This document shows, piece by piece, positions 1-61,884 of a DNA stretch of 64,000 bases. The notes under the pieces were generated by a model. It was given only the letters and a program-made list of their open reading frames with translations. It was not told where the DNA came from and did not search any database. Both the position numbers and the translations under genes were made by a program. Source of the stretch: a virus; IMG/VR virus record IMGVR_UViG_3300025660_000003, positions 1-64,000 of that record; one strand, written 5' to 3'. How positions within the stretch are numbered: position 1 is the first letter of the stretch; every line of letters begins with the position of its first letter.

Positions 1-312
1 GGGGGTCAGGCCACAGCCGGTCGCCAGCACACGGTCAATGACGTACTGCGGCTGGTTGCTGATGGCGAAGTCCCGCTGACCCTGCTCGACGTGCCACTTC
101 ATCCGGCGAAGTCGCGCCTCGACTGCCGCCCTGACCAGCTCTGTGCTGTCGTCCATCAGGACGACCACACTCGTCGGCAGCGCCGTGGGCCAGAAGGCTG
201 ACCAGTCCGCGTTTGCGGCGAGGGCCGCAGCAGCCTTGGCCAGCATTTCGTCTAGGTTGACGAAGTTCCACTGGGGTATGGCCCTGAGCTGCTTCTGTTC
301 GGCTTCGTACAT
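1..312 (-). CDS. Hypothetical protein, runs off the left end of the window
   Basis: ATG at 312 with GGAG upstream; frame open to position 1 (MYEAEQKQLRAIPQWNFVNLDEMLAK...); preceded by a GGCTCAG-N16-GTAGT motif. Absent from the ORF track because it has no stop in the window. Confidence 0.75.
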   Translation of the reverse strand, partial: MYEAEQKQLRAIPQWNFVNLDEMLAKAAAALAANADWSAFWPTALPTSVVVLMDDSTELVRAAVEARLRRMKWHVEQGQRDFAISNQPQYVIDRVLATGCGLTP

Positions 313-327
313 GGTGTCTCCGGGGCT

Positions 328-355
328 ACTACGGGGTGGGTCGGGAGTCTGAGCC
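328..355 (-). promoter_or_regulatory. Class I promoter-like motif GGCTCAG-N16-GTAGT, copy 1
   Basis: Minus strand GGCTCAG(355-349)-16 nt-GTAGT(332-328), just upstream of RBS and ATG 312. Confidence 0.8.
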
Positions 356-7235: not shown

Positions 7236-7858
7236 TGGCCGGTCACGGCAAGGTGAAGGGCATCTACGCAGGCCCGGTCGCCAAGGTGCTGGACATCCCG
7301 GTCACCAAGGGTCTGCTGGAGAAGCTCGGCAAGTGCATGGTCGCGGCCTACGTCAAGGAGGCCAAGAAGGACTTCGCCAAGCGCGGCTGGTCCGGCGAGG
7401 CCCGTGACGGTTCGGCCCCCATCTGGGACTCATTCTCGTACCGCATCAGGGGCGACCGGACCATCGAGGTGCTGAGCACCTTCCCCGACATCGAGGTGTT
7501 GACCACTCAGGACATCCCCTCGCGGCGGATGACATGGCTGACGCAGGAGGGCAAGAACATGAAGCCCTCGCAGTACCCGGTCACCCCACGGGAAAAGAAG
7601 CTGGGGATGAAGCTGGGTGGCCGCGTCTCACAGAACAAGCGGATGCCCCTCGTGGTCCCCATGAAGGACAAGAGCGGCACGGTCGTCTTCCGCACAGCCC
7701 CATTGAAGATGCAGGACGCCTGGGTCCACCCCGGCATCGCGCGGTTCACCTTCATGGAGCGGGCGGTACGCACCGGCAAGGCTGGCTGTGTCCAGATCCT
7801 TGCTGATGAGGTCAGGAAGTCGCTAGGGCTGGAGCTGACGAAGCGGATGCGAGGATGA
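7235..7858 (+). CDS. Basic neck / tail-completion-like protein
   Basis: 207 aa, Lys/Arg-rich, WVHPG...FMERAV ending reminiscent of HK97 gp10-like proteins; neck position. Confidence 0.55.
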   Translation: MAGHGKVKGIYAGPVAKVLDIPVTKGLLEKLGKCMVAAYVKEAKKDFAKRGWSGEARDGSAPIWDSFSYRIRGDRTIEVLSTFPDIEVLTTQDIPSRRMTWLTQEGKNMKPSQYPVTPREKKLGMKLGGRVSQNKRMPLVVPMKDKSGTVVFRTAPLKMQDAWVHPGIARFTFMERAVRTGKAGCVQILADEVRKSLGLELTKRMRG

Positions 7859-11218: not shown

Positions 11219-11503
11219 ATGGAAGAGGTCCGCCACAAGACGGCGAAGTCGTGGTTCGACGCCATTGAGACAGCGAACGGCCATGAGCTGCTGGTGGGTG
11301 ACGTTCCCACACGGCGGTCTCTCGGCTTCTTCGACCACACCGACGAGAAGCACCACCTGATCGGCCTGACCCTGATGGACGTGACCTTCTCGGACTACCT
11401 GGACCAGTTCCCGAAGGACCGCCGGGAGGCAGTGAGCCACAGTGTCCGGGAGTATCTGAAGACCCCGGAGAGCCGCAAGAAGCTCATCGAGAGCCGCGCC
11501 TGA
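11219..11503 (+). CDS. Hypothetical protein
   Basis: 94 aa, AGGAG RBS. Confidence 0.7.
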   Translation: MEEVRHKTAKSWFDAIETANGHELLVGDVPTRRSLGFFDHTDEKHHLIGLTLMDVTFSDYLDQFPKDRREAVSHSVREYLKTPESRKKLIESRA

Positions 11504-11931
11504 TGCCGACCTACGAATACCAGTGCGAGTGTGGCGTCCAGTTCGAGGCCCGTGCCTCCATCGCCAACAGGGATCAGACGAAGCCCTGCCCCGCCTGTCC
11601 TGAGCAGGGCAAGCCCATCCCTCCCTCCGGCGTCCACGGTCATTTCAAGAAGGAGGTGACCGGCCCCGTGCCTCAGAACACGGGCATCCACGACCTCGAC
11701 ACGAAGATCGACCGCGTGATCGGCCAGTCCAGCCACCAGGGCTGGGAGGTGGCCGAAGGGCGGAAGCGGATGAAGCAGGAGGTCATGCACCGTGAAGGCG
11801 TCACGGGCCACGACCTCTCGAAGAATCTCGACGGCTCCTACCGGGTGCTCAAGCCGGAGGAGCGGGGTCTCCACGAACGCAGCCAGGCGATTCACCAGGC
11901 GGCGGGGGAGCGAAAGAAGCCGAAGGGGTAG
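11503..11931 (+). CDS. FmdB-family zinc-ribbon protein
   Basis: MPTYEYQCECG...FE...CPAC. Confidence 0.85.
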   Translation: MPTYEYQCECGVQFEARASIANRDQTKPCPACPEQGKPIPPSGVHGHFKKEVTGPVPQNTGIHDLDTKIDRVIGQSSHQGWEVAEGRKRMKQEVMHREGVTGHDLSKNLDGSYRVLKPEERGLHERSQAIHQAAGERKKPKG

Positions 11932-11994
11932 TCGATAGTTTGACTATCCCGCACCCTTATCAGCGAAGGGCAAGTTCCTAGAACGCGCCCAGGC

Positions 11995-12095
11995 ACCTCC
12001 TCTCCGCACCGGAGATGGTCAGACAGACGACAGGATGAGTCCCAGCTTGTGCTTCCCCTGATGGGGACCTGCCTCCCGCGCTTCGGCGGGGATGG
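11995..12095 (+). promoter_or_regulatory. Structured leader of the sheath gene: two CC-[TCYC...GRGA]-TGG hairpin units
   Basis: Stems TCTCCG/CGGAGA (12001-12015) and TCCC-G-CGC[TTCG]GCG-GGGA (12074-12092), each flanked by CC and TGG; same element at 29232-29349. Confidence 0.6.
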
Positions 12096-12157
12096 ACACG
12101 ATGAAGCCATACGGACTGATGCTCGAACCCTGTTGACCACTCTCGTGAGGTGCCCTG

Positions 12158-15100
12158 ATGTCGTTCCCCGGTCTGAACTACGCCCCGCCCAACGTCTACA
12201 CCCGGACTGAGTTCGAGAACCCTCTTCAGGGGGCCATCGAGTCTCTGAAGGTCCCGATCTTCATCGGCGAGGGCAACGAGTACCTCTCCCAGGTGGATCT
12301 GGAGGTCGTGCGCGGCTCGTCCGCGACCATCGACCAGCGCATCGTCGGCGAAGACATGACGGGCCGTGCGGTCGCCAGCGTCTCGGCCACGGGCGTCGTG
12401 ACGCGGAGCGCCTTCGACGGCGTCCTCAACCGGGTCCAGGTCCAGAACCTCCCCGTCGTGGACGGCACGGGTCGGGGCACGACCAGCAACAGCCGCAGCG
12501 ACGTGACGGTGACCCTCAACGGTCTGCCGGTCGTGGTGTCGGCCCTGGACGGTGCTTCGGGCATCCTGACTCTCGCGCAGTCCCCGGCCCTGGGTGACCT
12601 CGTGCGGGTGAGCTACTTCTTCAACCGTGAGGACACGCTCGTCACGGACGACCTCTCGGAGCAGGTCACCCTCCTGGCGGCCATCATCCAGGCCAGCGTG
12701 GGCATCAAGGACGTGAACGCCCCGACGCCGGGCACCACGACCATCGACCTGCACGCTGACGTGCTCGGGCCGACCGGCCAGGTCATCGTCCCGGCGAACA
12801 ACGTCCTGAACCTCATCGTGGACGGAGTCACGGCGGCCATCACGCTGACGCCGAAGGCCGACTACACGATGCAGCAGATCGCCAACGTCATCTCGGCGGC
12901 TGGTGTCGGGACGCTGACGGGCGCGACCTTCGTGAACAACCACGGTGAGAGCACCCTCTCGCTGAACTCCGACCACGACCTGACGGTCATGGAAGGCACG
13001 GCGAACGCCCTGCTCGGTCTGGTGACGGGCTCCGTGAGCGTCCGCCGGAAGGCCTTCTACACGTTCAACGGTCCCATCGTGGACGGCACCAACGGCGGCG
13101 TCACGACGACTGACCCGAGCCACGTCACGGTCAAGGTGGACGGCGTCCAGGTCATCCCCGTCACGGTGGACGGTGCGACTCGGGCCATCACCCTCGCCCA
13201 GGCCCCGGAGGCCGGTTCGACGGTCACGGTGACCTACTGGTTCAACACCTGGCAGGACACCTACGACCACCTGGCCCACGTCAACGTCACAAGCGTCGAA
13301 CGGGTCGGCGACGTGCCCGGTGGCAGCCAGTACACCCAGGAGGCCGACTTCGTCCTTCAGAACGACCGGGTGATGTGGGGTACGGCGGCCACGGTGGTCA
13401 GCGGCATCACGACCACCGGGTCGGAGCTGCTCGATGACACGCAGGTCACTCCGACGCTGGTGGACAACCGGACCTTCATGTCCCCCTGCCTGGCGGTCAC
13501 GTCCGCACAGGGCGCGGTCAGCACTAGCGACTTCCAGCTCCCCCTGAACCCGACCCTCGGCAACGGCCGCTCGACGAGCCTCGGTCAGAGCCTCTTCCAG
13601 AGCATCAGCAACAACCGCATCGGCGTCCCGGTGAACCGGCCCGACGTGGTGGATGTCTACTGGGGCTTCTCGGTGGCAGACGCGCTGGTTCGCGGCAAGG
13701 TCGAGGCCATCAAGGTCGAGGGCAGCGTCATCACGCTCCCGGTCGAGGTCCCGGTCGGAGCCAGCGTCTTCGCCAGCTTCTATCACAACATGATCGTGGA
13801 CATGGAGTACACGCTGGCCGTGGTCCTGCCCGGCATCAGCGGCGTCGGTACCTACACCATCGCGGACTCCGGCGGGAACTCCGTCTACACCCCGACCTTC
13901 GACAACAGCACGAAGTCGGCGGGCCTGACGGGCATCGAGATCGTCTTCCCGAGCGGCAGCGAGCTGACCCCGGACCTCCACTTCGAGGGTGGTGCCGGGA
14001 CCGGCTTCACCGGCCCCATCGAAGAGGTGGTCACGGTCACCCTCGCGACGACGCAGGACACCCCGGCGAAGTTCACGGTCTCCGGCCCGTCGCCCTATGC
14101 CTTCATGCCCGGTGAGTCCGACCTCATCGCCATGACGATCAACGGGGACACCGTGCTCCCGGTCGCGGGCACCGACATGGACGTGCTCTCCGGCGGTGGC
14201 CTGGGTGTCATGGCCCACTTCGTCAGCAACGAGATCGCCTACCCGGACGGCATCGACTTCGACGTGGCCGACTTCACGGGCGGCGACGAGCAGGTCATCC
14301 TCACCATCGACGCTGTGGAGGTCACGGCGACCGTCGAGTCACTGGCCAACCAGACCATCGACGCCTGGGTCGCCTCCATCAACGAGGCGGCGGACGGTCA
14401 CCAGGGCGTCGCGGGCGTCGGTGCCCCGACCACCACCAGCTTCGAGCTGGCAGCGGGCAGCCGTTCCGCCGTGGACAACTACTACGCCGGGTGGCGGGTG
14501 GTCGTCGGCAGCGGTGCTGGAGCCATCACGGCCGGTACGGTCGGCACGGTCCTCAGCTACGTCGGAGCCACGGGCATCATCACGCTCACGGCGATCATCG
14601 ACGGGGCCAACGCCTTCGTGGCGGCGGACCCCTACCGCATCTACAACCCCGACACGATGGCCGAGATCAAGGGAGCCACGCGCTTCAACGGTCCCATCGA
14701 CCTGTCGGGTGCTGCGGGCTTCGACACCCTGACGATGCGGTTCAACTGCCTCGCCACGGCGGGTGCGGTGAACATCACCGCAGCGGTGGCGGCCCTGCAC
14801 TCCTCAGTGTCGGTGCTGGCGTCGGCCCTCAACACGGCGTTCCGTGGGGCCTCCGGTGACGACATCCTGACGCCTCCGGCGGGCGGCTCCCCCATCGCAG
14901 TCGTCATCGGCGGTGATGTCCTCCTCTCGGGTCTGGACTTCATCTTCACGGCGGACGGCAACGGTCGCCTGACGGTGGTGGTGCAGCTCCCCGGCCTCTC
15001 GACGGCGGGCTTCCTGGAGTTCGTTTCGCAGGGTGCGGCGGTCGATGACTTCTGCAACCTCGCGGGCTTCGACGCGGGCACGGCGGGCAGCGGCCAGATG

Positions 15101-24215: not shown

Positions 24216-24247
24216 TTGACAGTGGCGAGAACGACCATTAGGGTCGT
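24216..24247 (+). promoter_or_regulatory. Sigma70-type promoter with overlapping palindrome
   Basis: TTGACA(24216-21)-17 nt-TAGGGT(24239-44); ACGACC-5-GGTCGT (24231-24247) straddles the -10; ATG 7 nt after the -10. Confidence 0.75.
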
Positions 24248-24251
24248 GGGC

Positions 24252-24665
24252 ATGACGGATTCACCCCTGCACTTGAGCCTCACAGAGCTGGCGGACAAGT
24301 CGGGCTTCACGGCCCGGACCATCCGGCTCTACATCAGCAAGAAACTGCTGCCCCCGCCGCTCAAGGCAGGTCGAGAGGCGGCTTACGGCCAGGTCCACCT
24401 GGATGTGTTGCACAGCGTCAAGGGGTTGAAGGACTTCGGGCTGACGCTCGAACAGATCCGCAACCAGCTTCAGGAGCAGGGGGTCATCGACCCGACTCTG
24501 CCCGTCCCCGTGCCCTGGCTCATCATCCAGCCCGCAGACGACGTGGCGGTGATGGTGCGTTCCGATGTCGCCCCCTGGCGACGCAACCTGATCGACCGTG
24601 CCCTCGTGGACTTCGTCCGCGCAGTCACACCGAAGAACCTGGGCGACGAGCCCACGGGAGAATGA
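24252..24665 (+). CDS. MerR-type HTH regulator
   Basis: LSLTELADKSGFTARTIRLYISKKLLPPP...AAYGQVHLDVL...LKDFGLTLEQIR; leaderless ATG 24252. Confidence 0.88.
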   Translation: MTDSPLHLSLTELADKSGFTARTIRLYISKKLLPPPLKAGREAAYGQVHLDVLHSVKGLKDFGLTLEQIRNQLQEQGVIDPTLPVPVPWLIIQPADDVAVMVRSDVAPWRRNLIDRALVDFVRAVTPKNLGDEPTGE

Positions 24666-27334
24666 AGATGGAACCTGCTGTGAACACCCTCATCGACACG
24701 TCCACCGGCAAGGCCATCGACCTCGCCATGCAGAGCCTGGAGGTGACCGGACGGGTCTACCCCGTGGGCTCATTCGTGCGCGTCATCCACCGCTTCCGCT
24801 GCCTCGGCACCCGACCGATGGAGGCCATCTACGTCTCGCAGCTCCCGACCAACGGGGTGCTCCGGCGGTTCAAGGTCATCGGCGAGAACTTCGAGTCCGA
24901 CTCCAAGCTGGAGAAGCGCAAGAAGGCCCGCGAGACCTACGAGGAGGGCGTCGCAGGCGGTCACCTCTCCGTGCTGGCCGAGACCAACCAGGACGGCATG
25001 GTCAGCCTGACGGTCGGCCAGGTGCAGCCCGACGAAGAGATCAGCGTCATCATGGACGTGGTGGTCGGCGTGGACATCAAGGACGCGGGCTTCCGCTTCC
25101 GCTACCCGTTCACCCTCGCCCCGAACTACCACCCGCAGGCGAAGGCCACGGCGACCGAGGCCGGAGGCACCATCGAGCTGCCGTCCGACGTGTTCGGTGA
25201 CCTGGTGCTCCCCGAGTGGAAGGCCAGCGGCTTCGGTCTCCACGAAGTCACGTTCAACCTGCTGGTCTTCGGCGGTGGCGACCTGGTCACCTGCTCGTCC
25301 CCCTCGCACCGCATCACGGTGTCTCCGCAGGGCGACGGCTCCCACAAGGTCAGCCTCGCAGGCATGGCCGACACCCCGAACCGCGATCTCGTGATCGACG
25401 TGTCGGTCCCGGAGGCCAAGCCCCTCCTGTTCGCTGACGCGACGCTCCTCGGTGCGACCCCCACGGGGAACGAGCCGGTGACGCCCGCTGATGCAGCTCG
25501 CTGGACGGCCCTGGTGCCCTCCACAGCCCTCCCGAAGACCACAAGGCAGCCCCGGAAGGTCTGCTTCCTCCTGGACCGCTCCGGCTCCATGACGGGCGGC
25601 TACAACCACGACCCGACTGCCCCCATCCTTGGGGCCAAGAAGGCGCTCCTGGCCTGCCTGTCGCTCCTCCAGTCGGATGACGAGTTCGGCATCGTCCACT
25701 TCGGTTCGGACGCGACGAAGTTCGACAACCGCATGGGCAAGGCCGACGACGTGAACCGGGCTCGTGCCGCGAAGTGGGTCGAGGCGATCCAGTGCGCAGG
25801 TGGGACCGAGATGCTGACTGCCCTGTCCGCCGCGACCCAGGTGCTCGGTGGTCCCGGAGGCGACATCTTCCTGATCACGGACGGTGAGGTGTACGGCACG
25901 GGTGCCATCGTCGAGCAGATGAGTGCGAGCGGCAGTCGCGTCCATGTGCTCGGCATCGGGACGGCAGCTCAGCACCGTTTCATGGCACAGCTCGCCCGCC
26001 GGACGGGTGGGGTGGCCGACATGGTGTCCCCCAGCGAGAACGTGGCGGCCACGGGCCTCAAGCTGTTCGGCAAGGTCCGCGAGCCGGTGCTGACCGACAC
26101 GACGGCCAAGGTGGACGGCGTGGACGTGAAGAACGTCGGGACGGTGTGGGGCGGCCTGCCGGTCCTCATCAACGACCCCAGGGGCGACGGCTCCCTGCCG
26201 GGGACCATCCTCATCGACGGCAACGGGCTGAAGAAGGCCAAGGCGGTCAAGAAGTTCGCCAAGGTCGAGCTGCCGGACGGGCTCGTGTCCCTCCTGTGGG
26301 CTGGGCGTCGCATCGAGGATCTGTCCTCGAAGCTGGACATGGCCGGACAGGGGCCGATGAAGGACCGCATCGAGCAGAAGATGGAAGACGTGTCGGTGGG
26401 CTACAGCCTCGCCAGCCGGGTGATGAGTCTGGTGGCCGTGGTCGAGCGCATCGGCGACCAGGCGGGCGTCACGCCTGACCAGACGGTCGTGCCGGTGGGC
26501 GTACCCGAGGGTTCGGGGACCGTGTTCCCGGCCGCCGTCGCCCACGCCTCCATCCTCGGTCAGGCCGGTGTCGGGATGGGGAACACGGGGATGCTTCGCA
26601 GCATGACCCTGAGCAGCCCGCTCCGCAGCCGCAGGGACTACTCCTCGACTGGTCGGAAGGGCTTCGCTCCCCAGATCCGCCGCCGGGCCGGTCACATCAT
26701 CCCGGAGAGCAGCCGGGGTGGTCAGCCGATCAGCGTGAACTACTCGATGTCCATCGACAGCAACCTCGGTCCGGCGACCAAGGGCGGGAGCTTCGGCGAT
26801 TTCGACGATGGCGTGCGCAGCGCGGCTCCACCGACGATGGACTTCATGGACCTGGAGCGGGAGCGCGGCCCGGTACTGAAGGACAACCAGGATGCCTTCG
26901 ACGGTATCTTCGACAGCTACCAGAAGGGTCCGATCCCGGTCGCGGCCGTCTGCGGTGCCGCCACCTCGTCGGAGCCCTACGACGACGGGACCTTCTACCC
27001 GCACAACGATCTGCTGGTCAGCCTCTCCGAGCTGCTGGCGGACGGCGGAGTCCGGGGCAACACCCTGGAAGAGCGGGTGCTTCACACCCTCCTCCTGCTG
27101 TTCCTGGTCTCCCTGGAGTCCCAGAAGCAGCCCGGGGTCTTCGACGCCCACATCGTCCGGCTCGTCGAGTTCCTGACGGCGAACAAGCGGTCGGTGTCCG
27201 GCCGGGCCAGCCTGGTCCACAAGGGCATCAAGCTGGGTGTCAGCGGGGAGGCACGGCTCCGGGAGCAGTCGATCGTCAGCCTGTTCCGCAAGCCCACGTC
27301 GGACGCCTGGGAGGCGGTACGGCTCGCCGTCTGA
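24662..27334 (+). CDS. VIT + vWA domain protein
   Basis: VIT N-terminus (MEAIYVSQLP...ARETYEE...SLTVGQVQP); vWA with complete MIDAS (DRSGS, GGT, ITDG); 890 aa; ATGA overlap with the MerR gene. Confidence 0.92.
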   Translation: MKMEPAVNTLIDTSTGKAIDLAMQSLEVTGRVYPVGSFVRVIHRFRCLGTRPMEAIYVSQLPTNGVLRRFKVIGENFESDSKLEKRKKARETYEEGVAGGHLSVLAETNQDGMVSLTVGQVQPDEEISVIMDVVVGVDIKDAGFRFRYPFTLAPNYHPQAKATATEAGGTIELPSDVFGDLVLPEWKASGFGLHEVTFNLLVFGGGDLVTCSSPSHRITVSPQGDGSHKVSLAGMADTPNRDLVIDVSVPEAKPLLFADATLLGATPTGNEPVTPADAARWTALVPSTALPKTTRQPRKVCFLLDRSGSMTGGYNHDPTAPILGAKKALLACLSLLQSDDEFGIVHFGSDATKFDNRMGKADDVNRARAAKWVEAIQCAGGTEMLTALSAATQVLGGPGGDIFLITDGEVYGTGAIVEQMSASGSRVHVLGIGTAAQHRFMAQLARRTGGVADMVSPSENVAATGLKLFGKVREPVLTDTTAKVDGVDVKNVGTVWGGLPVLINDPRGDGSLPGTILIDGNGLKKAKAVKKFAKVELPDGLVSLLWAGRRIEDLSSKLDMAGQGPMKDRIEQKMEDVSVGYSLASRVMSLVAVVERIGDQAGVTPDQTVVPVGVPEGSGTVFPAAVAHASILGQAGVGMGNTGMLRSMTLSSPLRSRRDYSSTGRKGFAPQIRRRAGHIIPESSRGGQPISVNYSMSIDSNLGPATKGGSFGDFDDGVRSAAPPTMDFMDLERERGPVLKDNQDAFDGIFDSYQKGPIPVAAVCGAATSSEPYDDGTFYPHNDLLVSLSELLADGGVRGNTLEERVLHTLLLLFLVSLESQKQPGVFDAHIVRLVEFLTANKRSVSGRASLVHKGIKLGVSGEARLREQSIVSLFRKPTSDAWEAVRLAV

Positions 27335-27355
27335 CGCTGATGCGACTATGGATTC

Positions 27356-27389
27356 ACCTCCTGTAGGGGCGCTGTCCCCTACAGGAGGT
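27356..27389 (+). promoter_or_regulatory. Perfect 14-bp hairpin sequestering the PLD Shine-Dalgarno
   Basis: ACCTCCTGTAGGGG-cgctgt-CCCCTACAGGAGGT; the right arm contains AGGAGGT, 3 nt before ATG 27393. Confidence 0.85.
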
Positions 27390-27392
27390 CCC

Positions 27393-27839
27393 ATGCCCCG
27401 CAAGCCCTACGTCTCGACGTACTTCTCGCCCCGCAAGGGGGCCGCAGAGCAGGTGGCCGGGTTCATCGACCACTGCACGAAGTCCATCGACATCGCGGTC
27501 TACTCCCTGACCCACCCCGACATCGAGGCAGCCCTGCTGAGAGCACACGCGAGAGGCGTGAAGCTCCGGGTGCTGACCGACGACCTCCAGTCCCGCAGCA
27601 AGTGGTCGGCAGATGAGCGGCTGGAAGCTGCTGGTGTGCCCCTGCGGAGGGACACTCAGTCAGGCTCGATGCACCACAAGTTCTGCATCGGCGACCGCAA
27701 GGCGGTCATCACCGGCTCGTTCAACTGGACGAAGAATGCCGACCGCAAGAACGCCGAGAACTTCGTCATCGTCCGGCTCCGCAAGACGACGGCCACCTTC
27801 AAGGGCGAGTTCGACCGCATCTGGGAGCTGAACGCCTAG
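27393..27839 (+). CDS. Single-domain PLD-family (Nuc/Zucchini-like) nuclease
   Basis: YFSP...SIDIAVYSLT...MHHKFCIGD...ITGSFNWT...NAEN (HxKx4D, GSxN); no signal peptide. Confidence 0.9.
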   Translation: MPRKPYVSTYFSPRKGAAEQVAGFIDHCTKSIDIAVYSLTHPDIEAALLRAHARGVKLRVLTDDLQSRSKWSADERLEAAGVPLRRDTQSGSMHHKFCIGDRKAVITGSFNWTKNADRKNAENFVIVRLRKTTATFKGEFDRIWELNA

Positions 27840-28210
27840 TCCTCCCAGACCCTCTTCCGCCGGGGCTTCTCTGGCTCCGGCAGGGGGATGTGCCTCCAGG
27901 TCTTTCCGAGCCCGATGTTCGCGATGGTCTGCCTGGTGACCCCGTAGTCGGTGGCCACGGCAGCGGGCTTCTCCAGGTTGGCGAGCCTGACTCGGATGAC
28001 CGGGATGTCCGTAGACGACAGCTTGCAGCCCCGCAGGGTGACCTCCGGTGGGTCAGGTCGGTCGAGGTCCGGCCACGACTTCCCCTTCACCAGATTCGAT
28101 ACGGTCCCGGCCGTGACCTTGAACTCAGCGGCGAGGATCTTCTGCTGCTCACCTTCGGCCACACGGTCGATGATGGTCTGAGCCTGGTCCTCTGTGAGTC
28201 GCTTGTTCAC
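27836..28210 (-). CDS. Tandem-HTH protein resembling HNH-endonuclease C-terminal HTH repeats, without a nuclease domain
   Basis: Two repeats: LAAEFKVTAGTVSNLVKGKSW and VATDYGVTRQTIANIGLGKTW; start moved to GTG 28210. Confidence 0.75.
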   Translation of the reverse strand: MNKRLTEDQAQTIIDRVAEGEQQKILAAEFKVTAGTVSNLVKGKSWPDLDRPDPPEVTLRGCKLSSTDIPVIRVRLANLEKPAAVATDYGVTRQTIANIGLGKTWRHIPLPEPEKPRRKRVWED

Positions 28211-28216
28211 GCGGAC

Positions 28217-28253
28217 AGGGTACTTCGGCCCCAAAATCAAGTCTATTTTGATT
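28217..28253 (-). promoter_or_regulatory. Sigma70-type leaderless promoter with palindrome over the -35
   Basis: Minus strand TAGACT(28245-40)-17 nt-TACCCT(28222-17)-6 nt-GTG; AATCAA-7-TTGATT at 28235-28253. Confidence 0.6.
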
Positions 28254-28258
28254 CTCGC

Positions 28259-28287
28259 TAGGGCTTCTATATGCCGGGAGTAGTGAG
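28259..28287 (+). promoter_or_regulatory. Class II motif upstream of the tail tube gene
   Basis: tagggcttCTATatgccgggagtaGTGAG. Confidence 0.55.
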
Positions 28288-28320
28288 CGACAGGCGAAGC
28301 CCCCGCCACGGAGAACGATC

Positions 28321-29187
28321 ATGCCGAACCTGGACAATGGCCCCGCGAACGGACTTGGAGGTTCCTCGTACCTCTACGATTTCGGGACCTCTCCGAACAC
28401 TCGGACGGCGGTGAGCCAGAAGGTTCGCCTGCTGACCCCGCACTACGGGTCGAGCGCAGCGATGCACCAGATGGGCGTCGTCTCCAGCTTCAACCCCTCG
28501 CAGAGCCGGACGGTCGAGCCCGTGCGTGGCGTCGGCTTCGGAGATCAGGTCGCGGAGCTGGTGCCGAGCGTGACGGAGCCGACGACGGGTTCCTTCGAGC
28601 GTGCGCTCCTGTACCTCTGCAACCTGTGGCAGGCCACGGGCTACGCCTCTGGCGTGGACGGGCCGGTGCGGTCGCTGGCCCACCACAAGTGGCCGTTCGA
28701 CATCGAGCAGCAGCTCGTCTTCTCGACGCTGGCGGACATCGATCTCGGCGTGGCCAACAGCGGCCACGCGGGCGGCACGGGCTCCTTCGACGGCGGCATC
28801 AAGCAGACGGTCTACCCGGCGGTGACGCCGGACTTCGGCGGTGGTGGCGGCCCGAGCGGGCACGGCTCCGGTGGCCCCGCCACGGCTCCGGGAGCAGCCC
28901 GTGGTCACTCGGCCATCATCACCATCTACGAGGCCTGCTGGTTCACCTCCTGGTCCGCCACGTTCGCCAAGGACAGCGGCATGATCATGGAGAGCGGCGA
29001 CGTGACCGTCTCCGATGTCCACGACTTCGCTTCGATGTACGGCGAGTTCCTGGCGACGGGCAACGACCCGACCATCGGGCAGCTCGGCTCCATTCGCTTC
29101 GGTGAGAGTGACTCTGGGTTCCAGATCGCGCAGGTCGGTGGCGACCTGACGGGTGGTTCGCCGCAGTCGCCCTTCATCAACACGTAG
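28321..29187 (+). CDS. Tail tube protein
   Basis: GVVSSFNPSQSR...ELVP...ERALLY...PFDI...TIYEACWFTSWS...IMESGDVTV; precedes chaperones and tape measure; Gly-rich insert. Confidence 0.8.
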   Translation: MPNLDNGPANGLGGSSYLYDFGTSPNTRTAVSQKVRLLTPHYGSSAAMHQMGVVSSFNPSQSRTVEPVRGVGFGDQVAELVPSVTEPTTGSFERALLYLCNLWQATGYASGVDGPVRSLAHHKWPFDIEQQLVFSTLADIDLGVANSGHAGGTGSFDGGIKQTVYPAVTPDFGGGGGPSGHGSGGPATAPGAARGHSAIITIYEACWFTSWSATFAKDSGMIMESGDVTVSDVHDFASMYGEFLATGNDPTIGQLGSIRFGESDSGFQIAQVGGDLTGGSPQSPFINT

Positions 29188-29227
29188 CCGTCCGGGACAG
29201 GTAGCCGGGCTGGGTAAGATGTAGACG

Positions 29228-29400
29228 ACCACCTCCCCTACAGGGGGATGGTTCATGTGACCTCGGAAACAGCCGGTGGCCCTCAACGGACCAAACGGAC
29301 AAATGTGACGACCCTCGCTTGCTCTGTCCTCCTCTCCTACGGGAGATGGCTGAATGTGCTGACGACGGATATGGCCTGATCACGACCGCTTGTTCTGTCC
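29228..29400 (+). promoter_or_regulatory. Structured leader of the chaperone/TMP/baseplate operon: two tandem hairpin units
   Basis: CC-TCCCC/GGGGA-TGG (29232-29251) and CC-TCTCC[TACG]GGAGA-TGG (29331-29349), each followed by ATGTG and CGCTTGYTCTGTCC (29316-29329, 29387-29400). Confidence 0.65.
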
Positions 29401-29439
29401 AGAGCCCCCGCTGCTGTTCCCGTCAACAACCAGGGGAAC

Positions 29440-30627
29440 GTGCAGATGCAGATCGACTTCAAAGCTCTGGAGCAGGCTCTTGCTCCCATCGAGGAGATCG
29501 GCCAGGGCGAGCTGACCTTCGAGGCCGCTTCGACCACCATCACCTTGCGCGTCCTGTTGCCCGCCGAAGAGGTGGAGGCCCAGAGGTACGCCGCTTCGGT
29601 GCTCCAGGACGAGGTCGAGGGTGACCACTCGGCGGTGGACTATCTCGACCGCTTCCGTATTGCCTGCCTGTCCCACTCCGTCGTCGCCATCGGTGACATG
29701 GACTTCCGGGGCCTGGAGTACGTCGAGACCGGCGAGGTGCTCCCCAACGGGAGCCCGATCAAGGTCACCAAGTCGAAGGCGCTGCGGACGCTCCTGGCTC
29801 GCTGGACTCGCTCCACGCTGACGGTGGTGTACTCGAAGTTCAGCGACCTGACATCCAAGGCCGAGGCCGCTGCTGAGAGCCTCATCGAATACACGCCTTC
29901 GGATCTGTCCGCCGAACTCGACCGGCTCAACAAGCGGGTGGCCGAGATCACGGCGAAGATGGAACATGAGAAGATGATCGAGAAGGCGAAGTTCACCGAG
30001 CAGGTGGGGTCGATCTCCAAGGTCACCACAGAGGCCATGGAGCGGTCCCCCGCCACACCGGCCATTGCCGCCCCGGAGCCGAACCCGGAACAGGCGTTGC
30101 CTGCGGCGTCCCGCCGCACCGGCCCCATCAGCCCCACCACCGCCCCGCCACCGGCCGCCAGGGAGCCCAGAGCGGCCCAGCCAGCTCCGGCAGAGCAGCC
30201 GGTCCATCGGGCGGCCCCGCCGCGTGCGGACTCGTCGTTCATCAACCCGGACGACGACGAGTCAATGAACGCTGCTCTCGACGCGGAGCACAACCGCATC
30301 GTCGCGATGCGTCGTCGTGCAGCCGAAGGACAGCCCGCTGTGGATGATGCGTCCGCCCTGGAGCAGATTCACCCGCAGACGGCCCACCGCCGAACGCCTC
30401 CGCATCTGGAGGCCAAGAAGGCAGAGGCCGACGTGGGGGTGCTGGACGCTGCGGCACAGACGGCTCAGGAGATCGGCGAGATCGACGGCAAGCCGGTGTT
30501 TGCCCTCCCCGCACAGGACTTGGGGGTGAAGGCCCCTCCTGCTCCGGCTGATGCACGGTCAGCCATCAACCCGCCTGCGGCCACTGTGTCCGAGAACCCC
30601 CGGTTCAAGGCCCGCATCAAGCCCTGA
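29440..30627 (+). CDS. Putative tail assembly chaperone 1
   Basis: Between tube and TMP; globular N-terminus, Pro/Ala-rich tail; start may be ATG 29446. Confidence 0.6.
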   Translation: MQMQIDFKALEQALAPIEEIGQGELTFEAASTTITLRVLLPAEEVEAQRYAASVLQDEVEGDHSAVDYLDRFRIACLSHSVVAIGDMDFRGLEYVETGEVLPNGSPIKVTKSKALRTLLARWTRSTLTVVYSKFSDLTSKAEAAAESLIEYTPSDLSAELDRLNKRVAEITAKMEHEKMIEKAKFTEQVGSISKVTTEAMERSPATPAIAAPEPNPEQALPAASRRTGPISPTTAPPPAAREPRAAQPAPAEQPVHRAAPPRADSSFINPDDDESMNAALDAEHNRIVAMRRRAAEGQPAVDDASALEQIHPQTAHRRTPPHLEAKKAEADVGVLDAAAQTAQEIGEIDGKPVFALPAQDLGVKAPPAPADARSAINPPAATVSENPRFKARIKP

Positions 30628-54300: not shown

Positions 54301-56525
54301 CGACCGATGCTGCCTACGGGTTCCACGGCATCACCTACGAGACGATCTACAACCCCACCAGTGTCCCCGTGGTCAACATGGTCGCTGTGGTCCCGCTTGC
54401 CGGGAAGGTCAGGGTCACCCCTGGGACGCCCCACGCCAACGAGACGTTCGACCCCACCAACGAGGTGCCGGTCTATCTCAACGTCCCCTCGCTCCTGCAC
54501 TTCCACATCGACGCCACCCAGGGCGACACCCTGAACAACCCACAGGGCCACATCGGTCTCGGCAACGGCATCGCCTGTCTCCTGCCGGGGACTGAGATCC
54601 GCACGGAGGACGCCGCCAACAACCCAGCATTCTTCGCTCTCGGTGGGGTGTTCCTGGAGCCATCGACTCCGATGTTCCCGCCATCCCTCGATCCGGTTTC
54701 GACCCCGAACGTGGTGGATGCCACTCGGTCGATGGGTCTAGGTGCGGTGGGAATGCGCTCATCGACCACGGCCGAGGAGGTCCACTTCGAGGTCCGGCGA
54801 GTTCGACGGTGGCACGGGCAGCAGAACGCCATCAACGACGCCTTCCAGCCCTTGCAGTACGCCTACGAGATCCGCCGGGGCATCGTCACGGCCTTCGCCC
54901 GGAACGAGCAGCAGGTCGGCATGGTGACGGCCCTGAACTTCCAGATGAACTGGGCCGTGGCGAATCCAGCCCTGCCCCTCGTCGCGGACGTGTGGAACGA
55001 CAACGACGGGGATCTGCACAGCGGCACGAACCTCGGACCGTTCAACTCCGGGGACGTGAACATCAACCCCGGCGACACCTTCCGGCTGCTCGACGACAAC
55101 GACGTGGTGCTGGAAGAGGCTGTCGTCGCAGAAGTGGTGTCGGGCTCAGCCCTGAAGCTCCGGGCTCCGGGCTTCTCCACTCAGACGGCGGCCAGTGTGG
55201 TCGGTCGTCGGTTCGAGGTCTGGCTCCGTCAGGCCCCGATCCCGCATGAGCAGAGCAACGAGCAGCTCCTCGAACTCATCACCGACTCCGTGGTTCACGT
55301 CACGGCGGCAGACCACACCGACCCCGACCCCCAGAACTGGGTCGGCGGCTACGTCCCGGAGACGGCTGGCGGTAGCGCGTGGGCGGACGTGAGCAACAAG
55401 CTGCTGGACGACTCGGCTGGTGGCGTGGACTTCACGGCCCTGGGCGTCCGGGCAGACGACATCGTGATCATCGACCCGATGGGCACGCTGCCGGTCGTGG
55501 ACGAGCGGGGTGCCCGTCCGCTGGGCGACCGCAGCGTTCCGACTCGCACGCCCGCCGGGGCCTACCAGGCAGGCCCGGCATCCAGCCTGGACGACAACCG
55601 GGGCTTCTACCGGGTGGCCACGGTCGCCGCCGGGGAACTCGGCATCGACCCCATCCACCTGTTCGCGGGGACGCTGGGTGGCGACGTGCTGATGGCTGCT
55701 GTGCGGACCAACCTGGTCTACGCCATCTATCCGACCGTCAGCACTTCGGTCCTCTCGACGGATGGTGCAGAGGGCCAGAACGACCTGCGACCGACCCGCA
55801 AGGCGGTGGGCGGCACGTTCACCAGTGGAGTGCCCGTCGAGGACAAGCACTCGATGAGGCCCTTCAGCTACCGGATCATCCGGCCCAGCTCGCTCTTCAG
55901 CTCTGACATCGTGGACACGGTGCTGATGATGCGGGAGCGGATGCTCTCGCTCATCGAGCTGTTCCGCAGCTCGACCAAGGGGACGAAGGGCGGCTTCTAC
56001 TGGACCTGGCAGGACGCGGACCACGTCGAAGACCTTGGTGACCCGGCGGACCCAGACTCCGGGCTGGGGCTCTTCCCGAACCGGCTGGTGACGACCATCG
56101 TGGGCGAGACGAGTCGTTCACCATTCGTGAACACGAACGACTGCCTGTCCATCCTGGACCGCCGCTTCTGGATTCACGACACGAAGCTGGACCTCCGCGA
56201 GCCCGACCCGAACAACCCGTTCGGTATGCGTGAGGTGACGGGCGGGGTGGCCTTCGACGGCGTGGGCGGCCCCTACACGGCCTATACGGACGTGACTGTG
56301 GGTGGTTCAGAGGTCAGGCCGGTGCTGACCGACCACATCAACCTGGTGCTCGACGTGCGAGATCGACTCCGAGACATCCGATACACCTGGCTGGCCTACC
56401 GGACGCACAGGTACATCGGGACGCTGGCTCGAATCGCAGCCTTCGACGCGGCCTTGCCGGTACGGCTGGAGGAACGCGAGCGGGCGATGCTGCTGGAGAG
56501 CACGGCTGGAGAGGCGACGGAATGA
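45393..56525 (+). CDS. Giant 3710-aa virion protein (baseplate/fibre scaffold)
   Basis: Uninterrupted 11.1-kb ORF in the baseplate operon, coupled at both ends; beta-rich; shares short modules with the sheath. Confidence 0.8.
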   Translation: MGIEFTGHVLRAPRIAPGNSATSSPPENGVVRDVQVPPARTAADPLIVDFAGDQYRAAVLEGPGTSPHEYLVWTAVSSQLAQVEDATWWMTDGTGSIPAGETFRVIVTDDGGRDIGQVTHLVIARGDVVHVDEGWVDVNNPAAGRLGSLPFYVVVPALADQDPVSGVVTLKDSNVFTATGAGLVASTLATLFGTGLSLDRGDAVMEARYTLSSVKFWWTRNDRYETRFGWNNALQRWMPYKGSAPVNLGRLLFDTTYKLSPPLSNLPVGSVLPGDALVGDQYAMLRLGSSAGALSLPVGVNDVDGFTGVEVVADSAVESLYDFTASTMAAVVGQTNGILQFNPLYTQEHAGQSLWYVYRGFAADADGVVGTLIAPDDLFLAPVPGPTDRPFVRINNRTPLAVTLVADEAALGAVAPVEGACAVALTTGRLKLSTTDIDKSDPTKLGTFDKHFLGAVIVYDGVALNATPQPTKGPRPLVQADGVTTTVHPVELMYLPAALPWPEDAGGGIFSGLGISGVLHMPDKTGAIPDPEGVNPALVVVPVRPGGDALPAPGGGVPPQTIGLIRQIEDGVGDTILFSKAGAVEELIVVDRNSDLPDFPFNVPGGVAYITREATTVAAAPHSAVQLGSETRTAFAGQVVYFLQASLNPSTYTETAVLYSKSRIVFRFEGDEVLYFASDGVAHDWLASSLPVQASYTSTEVAASIQARITAQAGTATCRAAGDRVVLEAADPTTGWVEIGWGFPKDLSGASALGFLPGWRVLGGQPNWLTDAGVSMGLSRSLLNLDRSKPDADYLAQYRLEDTVLATAVQGTPFTFFDFPPVEDIAGFDDGVFFNLQTIALQGDDLRIIDKRLGHLDEIEHRFTEGKFAWLDSTVSSNLVQQRTSVVNLGNPLVVPESLLPAPGINGNFMAAEDAARYVVQQQGVDYLITDDGVSGNVQLVTRYGARVDFGGQGTFTLAGTTFEDPDANFVATMQPGTRIKLPEGSYFVDSVTDATHVEVSPPFISTATRATPWEAFAGFPDSVYDPAIVADQVFKPFDHLPDEPFRVRVLSPLGNIVIADFTANVEDANTSGRPVSLRFGAVAPGAGVTASLSPLTLTTLGVVANNLLVLPSTTHVDEAAFSIRVGTELHEQGVGLLPVAAFTADPVNVEYLTAAWNDGTVVHPKGELKFNSVLLVDLESSAVVLVETLRLAANLTAGAAEYDQKTGDIRIAAADVTTHAGTQLYFTEQMITRKPGADVAISPMVGAVSFRKPINKGSLVEIEYWLADSEGRRVGTPADRTIEFLPVFVRREAMVRLTDHEFNLDPNGSHVIDTRIKPVVYLGPKQQNFGKVDFTVDTPKHLLGQRLSFNRDLATWIVPEVNYAVFDALGGERAFQTSQKPVYRPPFFIKAGKDNFGLRGDRSADFEVGQMLRIGPECFYITEIRYFADPDTTRFDIYPSTVGEVGSRSPGNDVLTLVTAGPITPVLDPDGAAPIATAAPLGFMQEIVLADFPFEPVNAKQNSITFLGDLTTFAVPGHIMEIAGLPFTIASASLSEDGTRTKIIFTSPFRLAIDPAGLPTVRLSYRPVYPPEVRQFVGVGPYVASEGVDLTLSGEFIAGVEQPGRTLAEGTEFEVDPETGAVQLLAPLQEPLGPKQKLLLSFTKIRVMEPFYSGGQVQFPRWAAQYKHIVVPSVDNGYLGGTLTARYTFDNPDSFYFRALPLRSYLGEAVAQAVAEMQQGQSSGGPLLSSSVGTSNWQQGNLGLASQRRDLLDKDRAARSLLTFYNNAVVAFEQVEEAITGKFIGDRDGKFRFWVGRGEEYAPPGFEDEYTGELNPSIVWSSVFNATDLTRDIQFLTSDPLVRPTLCTLVDLQLFGEPLGASQLRDLMDQQRALIRNDVDDVVLLASSTPRTIPTNAPPYFTVEADGSFARMGSAHRYSRLFPTTTEVFFTLMPGIEADVSVAGDVGSYAWNRITTTGTTESTYRAPIGQVGNPVMGAIGNISEKVLQMRLPRARILSYHPEGLDSSAFGLAVTLPCVVVSNVPLADLPMDPATGFPDVSRFLSQNVTGDTADAVAGDPVFALPGFEVGQRVGWGKPDGRLLAALFPEEIDVFGSKTYTGLFINEVLHGCVLTFRDRQDNPISDPNQILVGTSPTSGIAAHIFGLIESDTIYVVPPDTANPISDPATESPTMEMQQQAALLSPAFRQGFDLAVDTSGQVKDLSLPSWGDPSLFPIKELLGQKTPEPMSHLEGVVDFANVDQLPLRTPALLGNPQDDAGDYAIPYMKGTNTELARFEQVTNVIGPLMAADAVDGGYFPDEILFVDGEVPAAPLLIAGLNYREPGALMVPTKTDPAATLGTAPGREGDFLLMEVNTASPQGYQGILTVGGLRNVNTGGTDWSWIEPPRFVTQVNQGSATRFILNKYAVHTTPGVYPVDPQVVSPPGVRIFDDIANGNTVLSFQDVVFGLNDAAAINVGNLNTVLAAHADNAVRVNLISRPDDTVVNGLAGAVSVANMKDGRVILTIHIRAGFARITDYQGGDTGWIAHAGVTFGGFDPVGGEPAPGAVADNRHIIISGWSGQVPFTPAVGTEVQWFMPHDHLDPAGANDRKISKYGWEFGIDLDTSVTGESTSAYIDSDRLTFHEVVDFRLARPRGFQHDNGVGAIRVYQTMLQVTEITLGGAVFSTVNDVIGAGLSIRSRDGSTTTIEGTWNPAPTPAEEGSIRVMAFEYANTGITVGDSTASVVASQTTDPSGSDILVGDGWAEADRIDSIVATTGDMDNVQKGDAVYIDRSATALPDAATEKAGTFITRFAIKPTAGPNLYLPVAKSTYAGTGNGFVTTRFPRVLSMDVLLQRLEIDDHLMLPATGKLFIAIRPADLNSAVPGTFTQALFSVDWTGFDLGGPNPKLILGAFDTWRWADDAPIGASLAAIALLISNADVVGRQMTWHDNAVGGAGASPSGVMQVNVSVRGGDLPDDSSVVGHHSIGPGATDAAYGFHGITYETIYNPTSVPVVNMVAVVPLAGKVRVTPGTPHANETFDPTNEVPVYLNVPSLLHFHIDATQGDTLNNPQGHIGLGNGIACLLPGTEIRTEDAANNPAFFALGGVFLEPSTPMFPPSLDPVSTPNVVDATRSMGLGAVGMRSSTTAEEVHFEVRRVRRWHGQQNAINDAFQPLQYAYEIRRGIVTAFARNEQQVGMVTALNFQMNWAVANPALPLVADVWNDNDGDLHSGTNLGPFNSGDVNINPGDTFRLLDDNDVVLEEAVVAEVVSGSALKLRAPGFSTQTAASVVGRRFEVWLRQAPIPHEQSNEQLLELITDSVVHVTAADHTDPDPQNWVGGYVPETAGGSAWADVSNKLLDDSAGGVDFTALGVRADDIVIIDPMGTLPVVDERGARPLGDRSVPTRTPAGAYQAGPASSLDDNRGFYRVATVAAGELGIDPIHLFAGTLGGDVLMAAVRTNLVYAIYPTVSTSVLSTDGAEGQNDLRPTRKAVGGTFTSGVPVEDKHSMRPFSYRIIRPSSLFSSDIVDTVLMMRERMLSLIELFRSSTKGTKGGFYWTWQDADHVEDLGDPADPDSGLGLFPNRLVTTIVGETSRSPFVNTNDCLSILDRRFWIHDTKLDLREPDPNNPFGMREVTGGVAFDGVGGPYTAYTDVTVGGSEVRPVLTDHINLVLDVRDRLRDIRYTWLAYRTHRYIGTLARIAAFDAALPVRLEERERAMLLESTAGEATE

Positions 56526-56758
56526 GTGGGCTGACCGAGGAGCAGGTGACCGAGCGGCTCAAGGCAGCGGGCATCGACCCTAGCGCCTGGGGCGCAATGG
56601 GAGGCCACGGCCCGCAGACGCCGAAGTTCGCCCTCAGCATCGCAGCGGATCTCAAGAAGGTGTCGGCTCTCCTTCAGGGGGTGGTGGACGAGAAGCAGGT
56701 CAAGGTGCGGTCCTTGGAAGAGCAGCTCGCCCGGTTGCGCTACGGCGGGGGTAGCTGA
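56522..56758 (+). CDS. Small coiled-coil protein
   Basis: 78 aa, overlaps both neighbours. Confidence 0.7.
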   Translation: MSGLTEEQVTERLKAAGIDPSAWGAMGGHGPQTPKFALSIAADLKKVSALLQGVVDEKQVKVRSLEEQLARLRYGGGS

Positions 56759-60708: not shown

Positions 60709-61884
60709 ATGTCCCTGGAGTTCCAGCTCGCGTGGCCCTGCCCCCATCTGACGGTGGAAGAGGTGGTGTCCCTTGGAGACGATCGGAGGTCGCTGAACAC
60801 GCGACAGCCGGTGGCGTCCAGTGGACAGGTGCGCGTGCTCGCCAACGACGACTTCTTCATCCCCCGCGAGGGGGTGCTCTCGGCGGCCGTGCTCTCCAGC
60901 TCCGTTTCTGGCCCCTTCGACATCATCGAGAACGAGGACACCCTGACCGTCGAGGCCAGTGGCGGTACGGCCACCCTGTCCTTCGGGGCGGTGGGGACCA
61001 TCCGGCTGACCACGGATCAGGTCATCCAGCGAATGACCATCGCGGCCTGGGAGCACGTCGAGATTCGCAACGACAACGGCTACCTGGTCTTCGTGGACAC
61101 GAACAAGGTCGGCCCTTCGGCCTTCGTCAAGGTGCGGGGCACGGTGGCATCTGCCCTGGGCTTCGGTCAGCCGACGCTCTCGGGCCGCCAGTGGGCTGCC
61201 TACGGTAAGGAGGTCTACCCCGGCTGGGACCTCTACCTCCGGCCCGACACCATCACCAACCGCTTCCCCCGGTTCCGCAAGCCGCTCCGCTTGAACCCGA
61301 TGCTCAAGGTGACCTACTCGGTCCCGGTCGCTCGCTGCCTGCGATGCCAGGCCGGGTTCATCGAGAACGACTTCCGGTTCGACGCCAGCGGCAACATGCT
61401 GCTCATCCAGAACGAGGACCTGCTCTACCAGGCGGCCCTGAAGATTCTGCTGACCGACAAGGGGAGCAACCCCTTCTTTCCGTGGTACGGCACGACCATC
61501 CGGGAGCGCATCGGCAGCAAGGCCCTGGCGGGCGTCGCCTCAGTCCTCAGCGAGGACGTGCGGAAGGCCCTGAGCCGCGTCCAGTCGCTCCAGACGGAGC
61601 AGGCGAAGTACCAGCAGGTCACGTTCAAGGAACGGCTCTACAGCGTCCTGGCGGTGAACGTGAAGCGGCACACGCAGGACGCGAGCACCTACCTCATCGA
61701 GGTCACAGTGCAGAATGCGTCTGGGGAACCCATCTCCCTGAACATCGTCTTCTCGGTGCCAGAGGTGGTGGCCCTGATGGGGAGCAACGGTTTGATGCTC
61801 GGTACTGAGGCGGCAGGGCTCGGGACCACAGAGGCTCGTCAGCTCTTCAAGAATGACCGCAACCTGCTGACCGGAGGCCAGTGA
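60709..61884 (+). CDS. Baseplate wedge / sheath initiator (gp25/gpW-like) with N-terminal extension
   Basis: LYQAALKILLTDKGSNPFFPWYGTTIRERIG is a gp25-type motif; CPH and CLRC could form a metal site. Confidence 0.85.
   Translation: MSLEFQLAWPCPHLTVEEVVSLGDDRRSLNTRQPVASSGQVRVLANDDFFIPREGVLSAAVLSSSVSGPFDIIENEDTLTVEASGGTATLSFGAVGTIRLTTDQVIQRMTIAAWEHVEIRNDNGYLVFVDTNKVGPSAFVKVRGTVASALGFGQPTLSGRQWAAYGKEVYPGWDLYLRPDTITNRFPRFRKPLRLNPMLKVTYSVPVARCLRCQAGFIENDFRFDASGNMLLIQNEDLLYQAALKILLTDKGSNPFFPWYGTTIRERIGSKALAGVASVLSEDVRKALSRVQSLQTEQAKYQQVTFKERLYSVLAVNVKRHTQDASTYLIEVTVQNASGEPISLNIVFSVPEVVALMGSNGLMLGTEAAGLGTTEARQLFKNDRNLLTGGQ

Follow-up and report, generated by a model that had tools for sequence, protein, structure and literature searches.

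The 252-nt gap between a gene for a 288-aa, tube-like protein (28321–29187) and the gene for a 395-aa protein carries a leader which, judging from the comparison of related loci, belongs to an undescribed and widely conserved cis-acting RNA family of a clade of very large phages. With fair confidence it can be described as a leader that acts in cis to control translation and has a pair of alternative folds. In the reading that we consider probable, a promoter-like motif precedes a leader that sequesters the Shine–Dalgarno sequence (SD) in one of two mutually exclusive folds, and an RNA-binding factor gates the translation of the tail operon. The window, meaning the whole 64 kb stretch of DNA that was analysed, covers positions 1–64,000 of a 141,696-bp IMG/VR virus record (G+C content of 65.6%), and the record is about 27% complete according to CheckV. 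The public runs matching the stretch were marine, seawater and freshwater metagenome DNA runs only, with no RNA runs among them.

The 395-aa gene starts an unbroken chain of + strand genes from 29446 to 60662 (approximately 31 kb) with gaps of less than 10 nt or overlaps, as described in the original prediction. The products of this chain are, among others, a 1117-aa protein whose tape-measure-like Pfam match is weak and below threshold, a 1733-aa protein with a weak M15-like match and a 3710-aa protein; a 78-aa ORF occupies positions 56522–56758 of the chain. The 391-aa gene directly past the chain (60709–61884) showed weak baseplate and sheath-initiator matches. In the original prediction, the 288-aa protein was called “tube” and a 1769-aa protein “sheath”; the evidence for both names is weak and our own searches did not confirm them: neither protein had a Pfam, PHROGs or PDB sequence-search match. 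AlphaFold2 modelled the 288-aa protein too poorly for use (pLDDT 35.6), and an Atlas feature search pointed to tail-tube families, through clusters with 28% Phi812_tail_tube and 19% DUF2001 members, which is a lead only. The sole homologue in a cultured phage (36% identity) belongs to Tunturiibacter phage Tunturi_5 (L114, PP885688.1, 276441–277136), where it is annotated as “virion structural protein”, is flanked by genes labelled “DNA ejection protein” and “head maturation protease”, and is followed by a gap of just 72 nt. Given this annotation and these neighbours, the tube assignment is not secure.

A MerR-like gene, a gene for an 890-aa VIT and von Willebrand A protein and a PLD-like nuclease gene lie between the sheath and tube genes (24216–27839). 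Since these genes intervene, the leaders of the tube-side operon and of the sheath gene head separate transcription units located about 17 kb apart. Directly ahead of the PLD-like gene, a perfect inverted repeat of 13–14 bp (27356–27389, CCTCCTGTAGGGG / CCCCTACAGGAGG) would pair the AGGAGG SD of that gene, making another SD-burying hairpin in the same genome. Two tRNA genes were seen upstream of the tube homologue in one relative (L027, positions 195–346, minus strand).

All the parts of the leader are on the + strand. The promoter-like −10 element GGGTAAGAT (GGTAnnnT, 29212–29220) was recognized by a motif count across leaders, since 42 of the 50 distinct leaders have the word no farther than 90 nt ahead of the core, versus 4.3 expected from shuffles (maximum 13). 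The transcript is predicted to start near 29226–29228; a sigma-70 scan of 28000–30500 showed no two-hexamer promoter. Hairpin H1 (29232–29251), identified by reading the sequence, has seven C/G-rich pairs, a UACAG loop, a bulged U29249 and a terminal UGG. Its stems covary in close relatives, as in the 8-bp TCGTCCCC/GGGGGCGA stem of L004, and H1-like hairpins were present upstream of the core in L119–L130 and L032; many distant leaders have no H1.

The core leader RNA, as delimited by the covariance model R1, extends over 190 nt from boxA to the AUG (29259–29448). The boxA segment (GGAAACAGC, 29265–29273) is the 5′ strand of the helix P1a; it can also fold locally, supplying the loop and some of the stem of a hairpin at 29262–29279. 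The GGUGGC segment (29275–29280) is the 5′ strand of P1b, with its partner at 29404–29409, both strands being assigned by paired-column counts. The A-rich tract 1 (29281–29315) consists of GAY repeats with two ACGGA and no predicted pairing, and leads to box 1 (CGCTTGCTCTGTCC, 29316–29329; family consensus CUUGnGCU). Hairpin H3 (29331–29349) has seven pairs, a C(UACG)G loop, a bulged U29347 and a terminal UGG; it is 92% paired, with 4–5 pairs changed on both sides and one pair found 21 times as CG and 18 times as UA. In both H1 and H3, the bulged U is located two pairs above the base. The motif after the hairpins is RUGG in the family, UGG being replaced by CGG in several lineages. Tract 2 (29350–29386), again of GAY repeats with a conserved ACGGA-like core, precedes box 2 (CGCTTGTTCTGTCC, 29387–29400), which makes a small hairpin (29387–29402) with a conserved nGCUGUY loop and the pairs U29390–G29402, U29391–A29401 and G29392–C29400 (83–87% paired, 2–3 pairs changed on both sides).

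Beyond the 3′ strand of P1b comes the anti-SD strand (29411–29421), defined by a lineage permutation test, whose partner is either boxA (P1a, 29413–29421) or the SD arm. The SD GGGGAA (29433–29438) and the spacer run to 29445, and positions 29434–29445 are the 3′ arm of the SD hairpin. The probable true start of the 395-aa gene is the ATG at 29446–29448, since close relatives all have CAGATGCAGATC at this place and the SD is 7 nt ahead of it; judged by the same comparison, the GTG at 29440, where the mechanical ORF begins, is probably not the true start.

All of the predicted features were found in place, namely both hairpins, both exact copies of the CGCTTGYTCTGTCC box and the ACGGA words at 29287, 29296 and 29366. 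No other copy of CGCTTGCTCTGTCC / CGCTTGTTCTGTCC with one mismatch or less exists in the window, the next best (7628–7641, minus strand) having two mismatches, and the 141.7-kb contig has just four CCTC-type hairpins followed by GGRGATGG, two of them in this gap and the other two in the sheath leader. The predicted organization into two tandem hairpin-plus-box units was retained as to structure and amended in one respect, as the hairpin of unit 1 in the family is the boxA hairpin (29262–29279) and not H1. The latter is an additional hairpin close to the predicted 5′ end and was seen in the clade of the window and in L032. Across the 50 sequences, the two tracts contain 239 GAC versus 68 expected and 157 GAU versus 50, as well as 78 CGGA versus 16 and 120 GGA versus 67 (1.8-fold). 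An all-against-all covariation scan revealed no further helix or pseudoknot in the tracts and boxes; the top pairs corresponded to the known helices and the rest resembled composition noise.

The long-range helix P1, in which boxA and GGUGGC pair with 29404–29421, encloses a domain of about 125 nt made of the two units, each with a hairpin, RUGG, a GAY-repeat tract and a CUUGnGCU box. Both segments of P1 (P1b being GGUGGC with GCCnCC) and H3 were predicted by RNAalifold on a sequence-only MAFFT alignment. P1a is 88–92% paired with 4–6 pairs changed on both sides, and P1b is 82–89% paired with all six pairs changed on both sides in the 50-sequence alignment. Over the MAFFT alignment, 87.9% of the cells were paired compared to 38–55% with slid partners, and covariation reached 0.331 compared to at most 0.137. 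The R1 model, built from this alignment, found 58 leaders, 50 of them distinct, with a score of 144 bits at the leader of the window and of 26–157 bits in 57 relatives. In the 50 distinct sequences, 90.1% of the cells were paired, 20 of 25 pairs were changed on both sides and covariation was 0.376 compared to at most 0.138, in an alignment that was fitted to the R1 model itself. The covariation of the hairpin stems, first noticed within the window, was borne out in the alignments of relatives, and the covariance search across related phages that had been suggested as a check gave strong covariation in these 58 leaders (50 distinct). The weakest part of the model is the local boxA hairpin, 60% paired in a fixed register of the MAFFT alignment.

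The alignment contained 159 G–U cells versus 28 A–C cells. As G–U is far above A–C, the structure is one of the + strand RNA rather than of DNA. This bears directly on the idea of a DNA-level element, either an array of operator or activator sites or tandem late promoters, which could draw on the conserved GGTAnnnT upstream and on the loose likeness of CTTGnGC to a −35 hexamer. The helices change their sequence yet keep pairing, with the G–U excess (159 to 28) on the + strand only, and the stem sequences and loop lengths vary freely, unlike those of protein operators. Moreover, approximately 25 nt separate the box from any −10-like word and the sigma-70 scan was empty. We hold a DNA-level element to be extremely improbable.

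The second fold concerns the SD. The SD hairpin (29411–29445, about −17 kcal/mol) buries GGGGAA and ends one base ahead of the ATG at 29446. An SD-containing hairpin was present at the 3′ end of nearly all of the 23 leaders folded, with differing stems such as UUUCC/GGAAA, CUUCC/GGAAG and GCCCC/GGGGC, and it was 82.9% paired in the fixed-column MAFFT alignment. For the helices of this OFF state together, the excess in the MAFFT alignment was modest, with 72% paired versus 38–61% in controls, and 22–28 of 500 shuffles reached the observed values, kinship among the sequences inflating tests of this kind.

The 3′ strand of P1a (29413–29421) lies inside the 5′ arm of the SD hairpin (29411–29421), so that the two helices cannot coexist. 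An alignment-free duplex test was performed on 30 lineages less than 80% identical to one another, with 5000 permutations. The own partner bound better than a foreign one for boxA with the anti-SD, for P1b and for the SD arm with the anti-SD, as well as for the local boxA hairpin, where the preference was weaker; in each case none of the 5000 permutations did as well (kinship inflates permutation-based tests too). Four control strand pairs, boxA with the SD arm among them, showed no lineage-specific fit (961–2401 of 5000). Because boxA and the SD arm have no fit to each other and both track the anti-SD, alternative pairing is the best explanation; the helices and their mutual exclusion thus emerge from comparison between lineages. 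Calculations with nearest-neighbour energies, which are unreliable for a 125-nt multiloop and do not settle the dominant state in the cell, placed the SD-hairpin state lower by 0.7–14 kcal/mol in 20 of 21 leaders, suggesting that kinetics or a factor must assist the P1 state. The whole leader of the window folds no better than shuffles (z = −0.57), which makes thermodynamic stability alone uninformative.

One can also picture a structured leader that does not switch and keeps expression at one constant level, whether by stabilising the 5′ end, by being processed by RNase III or RNase E, or by serving as a standby platform for ribosomes. The position of H1 within about 10 nt of the predicted 5′ end would fit this role, the A-rich tracts without predicted pairing could be standby sites, and the covariation support is much stronger for P1 than for the OFF-state helices. 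However, across 30 lineages the anti-SD is complementary to two partners which have no mutual fit, something hard to explain without alternative folds, and in the sheath copy the SD itself is part of the closing helix. We regard a constitutive leader as rather unlikely.

The leader element is kept in 50 distinct sequences from viral and metagenome contigs. The relatives of the 288-aa protein number at least 168 in IMG/VR and, among metagenome contigs, at least 575. Compared with the window, the five closest lineages show 77–82% identity over the gap, on a par with the tube gene (80–84%), and lower values for the next two genes (65–77%; 65–70% for the 395-aa gene alone, at the DNA level) and for third codon positions (55–73%). 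The leader is therefore better kept than the neighbouring 395-aa gene and the third codon positions, and its stems covary, so that its conservation is far beyond chance. On this comparative evidence the leader is under purifying selection. A gap of 214–264 nt with the same order of elements was found in 29 of the 39 relatives listed (tube identity of at least 55%), although the G+C content of these 29 ranges from about 41% to 64%; the others had one gap of 380 nt and nine gaps of 53–105 nt without the element. The core from boxA to the AUG measures 180–196 nt in 17 of 20 lineages. The contigs of relatives are up to 380–540 kb in length and the matches came from marine, sediment, freshwater and other samples.

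Among the short-gap lineages, L026, L028/L031, L033, L035/L036 and L041/L042 have 53–105 nt after the tube homologue, where a GGTAnnnT-type word is kept and the leader is missing; in L035 the word is in the loop of a terminator-like hairpin. Such lineages are natural “leader-less” controls.

Rfam 15 was searched at the gathering threshold and also at E ≤ 10, using the window, the two leaders and 11 related loci. Nothing was matched apart from two tRNAs elsewhere, in agreement with the original view of an RNA element outside the known families. The best sub-threshold match was psaA, with 13.4 bits for a threshold of 50. A full-text literature search returned no description of such a leader.

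Two frames within the leader were considered as leader peptides and rejected. In close relatives, indels of 1 nt and 2 nt disrupt the one starting at ATG 29248, which has no counterpart in L013 or L015, other relatives carrying unrelated short ORFs only. The one starting at 29346, inside the frame 29319–29624, is not conserved, being affected by indels and missing in distant relatives.

The pairing scheme follows the same logic as ermC-type attenuators, in which strands 1:2 plus 3:4 compete with 2:3, the SD being in the 3:4 hairpin and freed by 2:3. The leader shows this four-strand alternative pairing freeing the SD, but no conserved short ORF covers strand 1 in the relatives compared, and a conserved two-unit domain of about 125 nt separates strands 2 and 3. 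The absence of a conserved leader peptide, together with this domain between the strands, indicates that the trigger is not a stalled ribosome. A second likeness is to the Vibrio add adenine riboswitch, which is of the translational ON type and in which the 3′ strand of P1 is the anti-SD. In the leader, too, the P1 3′ strand is the anti-SD, the closed domain frees the SD and the calculated ground state is OFF. The leader domain differs in being large, repetitive and mostly made of conserved sequence without predicted pairing, and it precedes phage structural genes and has no Rfam riboswitch match.

A translational ON riboswitch for a small molecule, with the P1-closed domain as its aptamer, would have precisely this architecture, with an unliganded ground state that is OFF. 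Against it, approximately 70 nt of the domain are repeat tracts without predicted pairing or covarying partners, unlike the known compact aptamers, the element consists of two repeated units, and the genes controlled are virion structural genes with no metabolic link. We consider a small-molecule riboswitch very unlikely. T-box leaders have a T-box sequence, in which a UGGN bulge pairs with the NCCA end of a tRNA, and a Stem I specifier; the leader is not of this kind, as no Rfam match appeared at E ≤ 10 and the UGG after its hairpins is CGG in several lineages. The logic of the leader is thus like that of ermC-type attenuators and translational ON riboswitches, and the defining trigger of neither is present.

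The original prediction had also proposed processive antitermination, in which put- or nut-like hairpin units modify the RNA polymerase so that it reads through 31 kb. Like HK022 put and lambda nut, the leader is a cis-acting RNA with hairpins, present in two copies per genome (as are putL and putR) and heading a long phage operon, here a 31-kb chain of closely spaced genes, and box 1 of the window contains UGCUCU, which is rrn boxA-like. Several observations argue the other way. An intrinsic-terminator scan of 28000–30500 was negative, within the leader as well as around it; the alternative pairings that are conserved involve the SD and not a terminator; and the second copy heads a single gene, that of the sheath. 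The TGYTCTGT that had been compared to boxA did not hold as such, UGCUCU being peculiar to the clade of the window and box 2 being the loop of a small hairpin; the conserved nut boxA word for NusB/NusE (CGCUCUUUA or UGCUCUUUAACAA) is absent, and 20–50 relatives keep the family word CUUGnGCUGU. No boxB with a conserved purine-rich pentaloop next to boxA was seen, the H3 loops varying freely in sequence as well as in length (4 to more than 10 nt). The hairpins are about 75–95 nt apart, whereas put has two adjacent stem-loops of about 70 nt in all and terminators to be read through. Antitermination therefore has a low probability in our judgement, comparable to that of the riboswitch.

The sheath gene possesses a related leader. 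The leader of this 1769-aa gene is 226 nt long, and the paralogous element (11992–12160, + strand, with the ATG at 12158) was delimited from the R1 match, RNAalifold and the single-sequence fold. An invariant GGCACC (11992–11997) pairs with GGUGCC (12149–12154) inside the SD GAGGUGCC, about 150 nt downstream. In the clade of the window, three covarying hairpins (11999–12018, 12054–12067 and about 12072–12095) are accompanied by GAY tracts and a GCTTGTGCT box. Both RNAalifold and the minimum-energy fold (z = −2.36) close the sheath domain with the SD helix. The R1 model gave a partial match at 11997–12060 (E = 0.015 over the whole 142-kb contig) and full-length matches at the distant sheath leaders L101 (31.7 bits), L096, L100, L098 and L083. 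A complete 436-kb relative with terminal repeats has exactly two R1 copies, one after the tube homologue and the other between a zinc-ribbon gene and the sheath homologue. The kinship of the two leaders, already proposed from their shared units, is upheld by these matches, and by comparison the sheath leader is a divergent paralogue of the tail-operon leader. As the SD is tied to the domain in each of them, both leaders couple a two-unit domain to SD access.

At the distant sheath loci L104–L109 (40% sheath identity), GAY-type tracts and a TTGAGCT box were seen about 200 nt upstream of the sheath start, and L104 has an 8-bp long-range helix, CCGAGCAG / CTGCTCGG. These loci were unscored by R1 yet share such features, so that the family may exceed the reach of the model.

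A gene for a 142-aa protein (11503–11931, + strand) ends at the first base of the sheath leader. The N-terminus of the protein carries a zinc ribbon of the FmdB type (PF09723, scoring 38.7 bits, which exceeds the cut-off), and the C-terminal tail is basic. The gene is upstream of the sheath gene in all the related loci with sufficient flank, down to 29% identity, and stops just ahead of the leader in most of them. A second copy of the FmdB-type domain is present at 132952–133038 of the contig. In phage Mu, the SD of the late gene mom is held in an inhibitory stem, which Com, a small zinc-ribbon protein, opens by binding to a hairpin next to it. The synteny of the zinc-ribbon gene with the sheath leader recalls this system; the differences are that the ribbon is of the FmdB type and not Com, and that the leader is far larger. 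Com (PF10122) had no match on the contig, an absence that says little for a contig only 27% complete. The FmdB-type protein is a candidate leader-binding factor, as a lead only.

Other known systems point to the kind of factor that could be involved. Proteins that act on RNA as oligomers, for example phage coat proteins, TRAP and CsrA, recognise features of the kind seen here, namely bulged-pyrimidine hairpins and arrays of repeated triplets. In the TRAP/trp and CsrA leaders, oligomeric proteins read repeated triplets, the TRAP triplet being (G/U)AG. Here also, repeated-triplet arrays (GAY, with GGA enriched as well) flank alternative structures that decide access to the SD; the triplet differs, GAC/GAU with a spacing of 1–5 nt. 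Leaders regulated by CsrA/RsmA carry several GGA motifs (ANGGA), typically in the loops of hairpins and with one of them overlapping the SD. Here a GGA is found in the SD GGGGAA, and most GGA are in stems or tracts and not in loops. CsrA (PF02599) was absent from the contig, which says little as the contig is just 27% of the genome by CheckV.

The likeliest function would be a translational switch set by an RNA-binding factor, and the RNA–protein switch tuning tail protein output, put forward at the outset next to antitermination, would still be the best reading. We propose the following model. The leader would be the 5′ end of the mRNA for the gene chain after the tube-like gene. In the ON fold, boxA and GGUGGC would pair with 29404–29421 over about 130 nt, tying up the anti-SD and leaving the SD free. 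In the OFF fold, the anti-SD would pair with 29434–29445 and the SD would be buried up to the base before the AUG, while boxA would fold on itself. An RNA-binding factor, either a phage late protein or a host regulator, would set the balance between the folds by reading the bulged-U hairpins, the single-stranded GAY tracts, or both; this direction of control and this type of trigger are what we infer from the architecture. The translation of the first gene would be gated in this way and, through the close spacing of the downstream genes, also that of the operon.

An extension of this model can be envisaged, in which one trans-acting factor reads the hairpin and GAY units of both leaders with opposite effects, as a reciprocal switch, the FmdB-type zinc-ribbon protein being a candidate. 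Closure of the domain would free the SD of the tail/baseplate operon, since P1 holds the anti-SD, and would bury that of the sheath, since the closing helix there includes the SD itself. We consider this extension unlikely. If it were true, the switch would order tail assembly, with the baseplate before the sheath.

If the family is confirmed, it would add a large class of cis-regulatory RNA of unusual build, with two tandem units of hairpin, triplet tract and box inside a long-range P1. The leader offers a tractable test case for the post-transcriptional control of virion stoichiometry or timing in phages that are not yet cultivable. In genomes that otherwise defy annotation, the R1 model shows where the tail module begins and which start codon is the true one.
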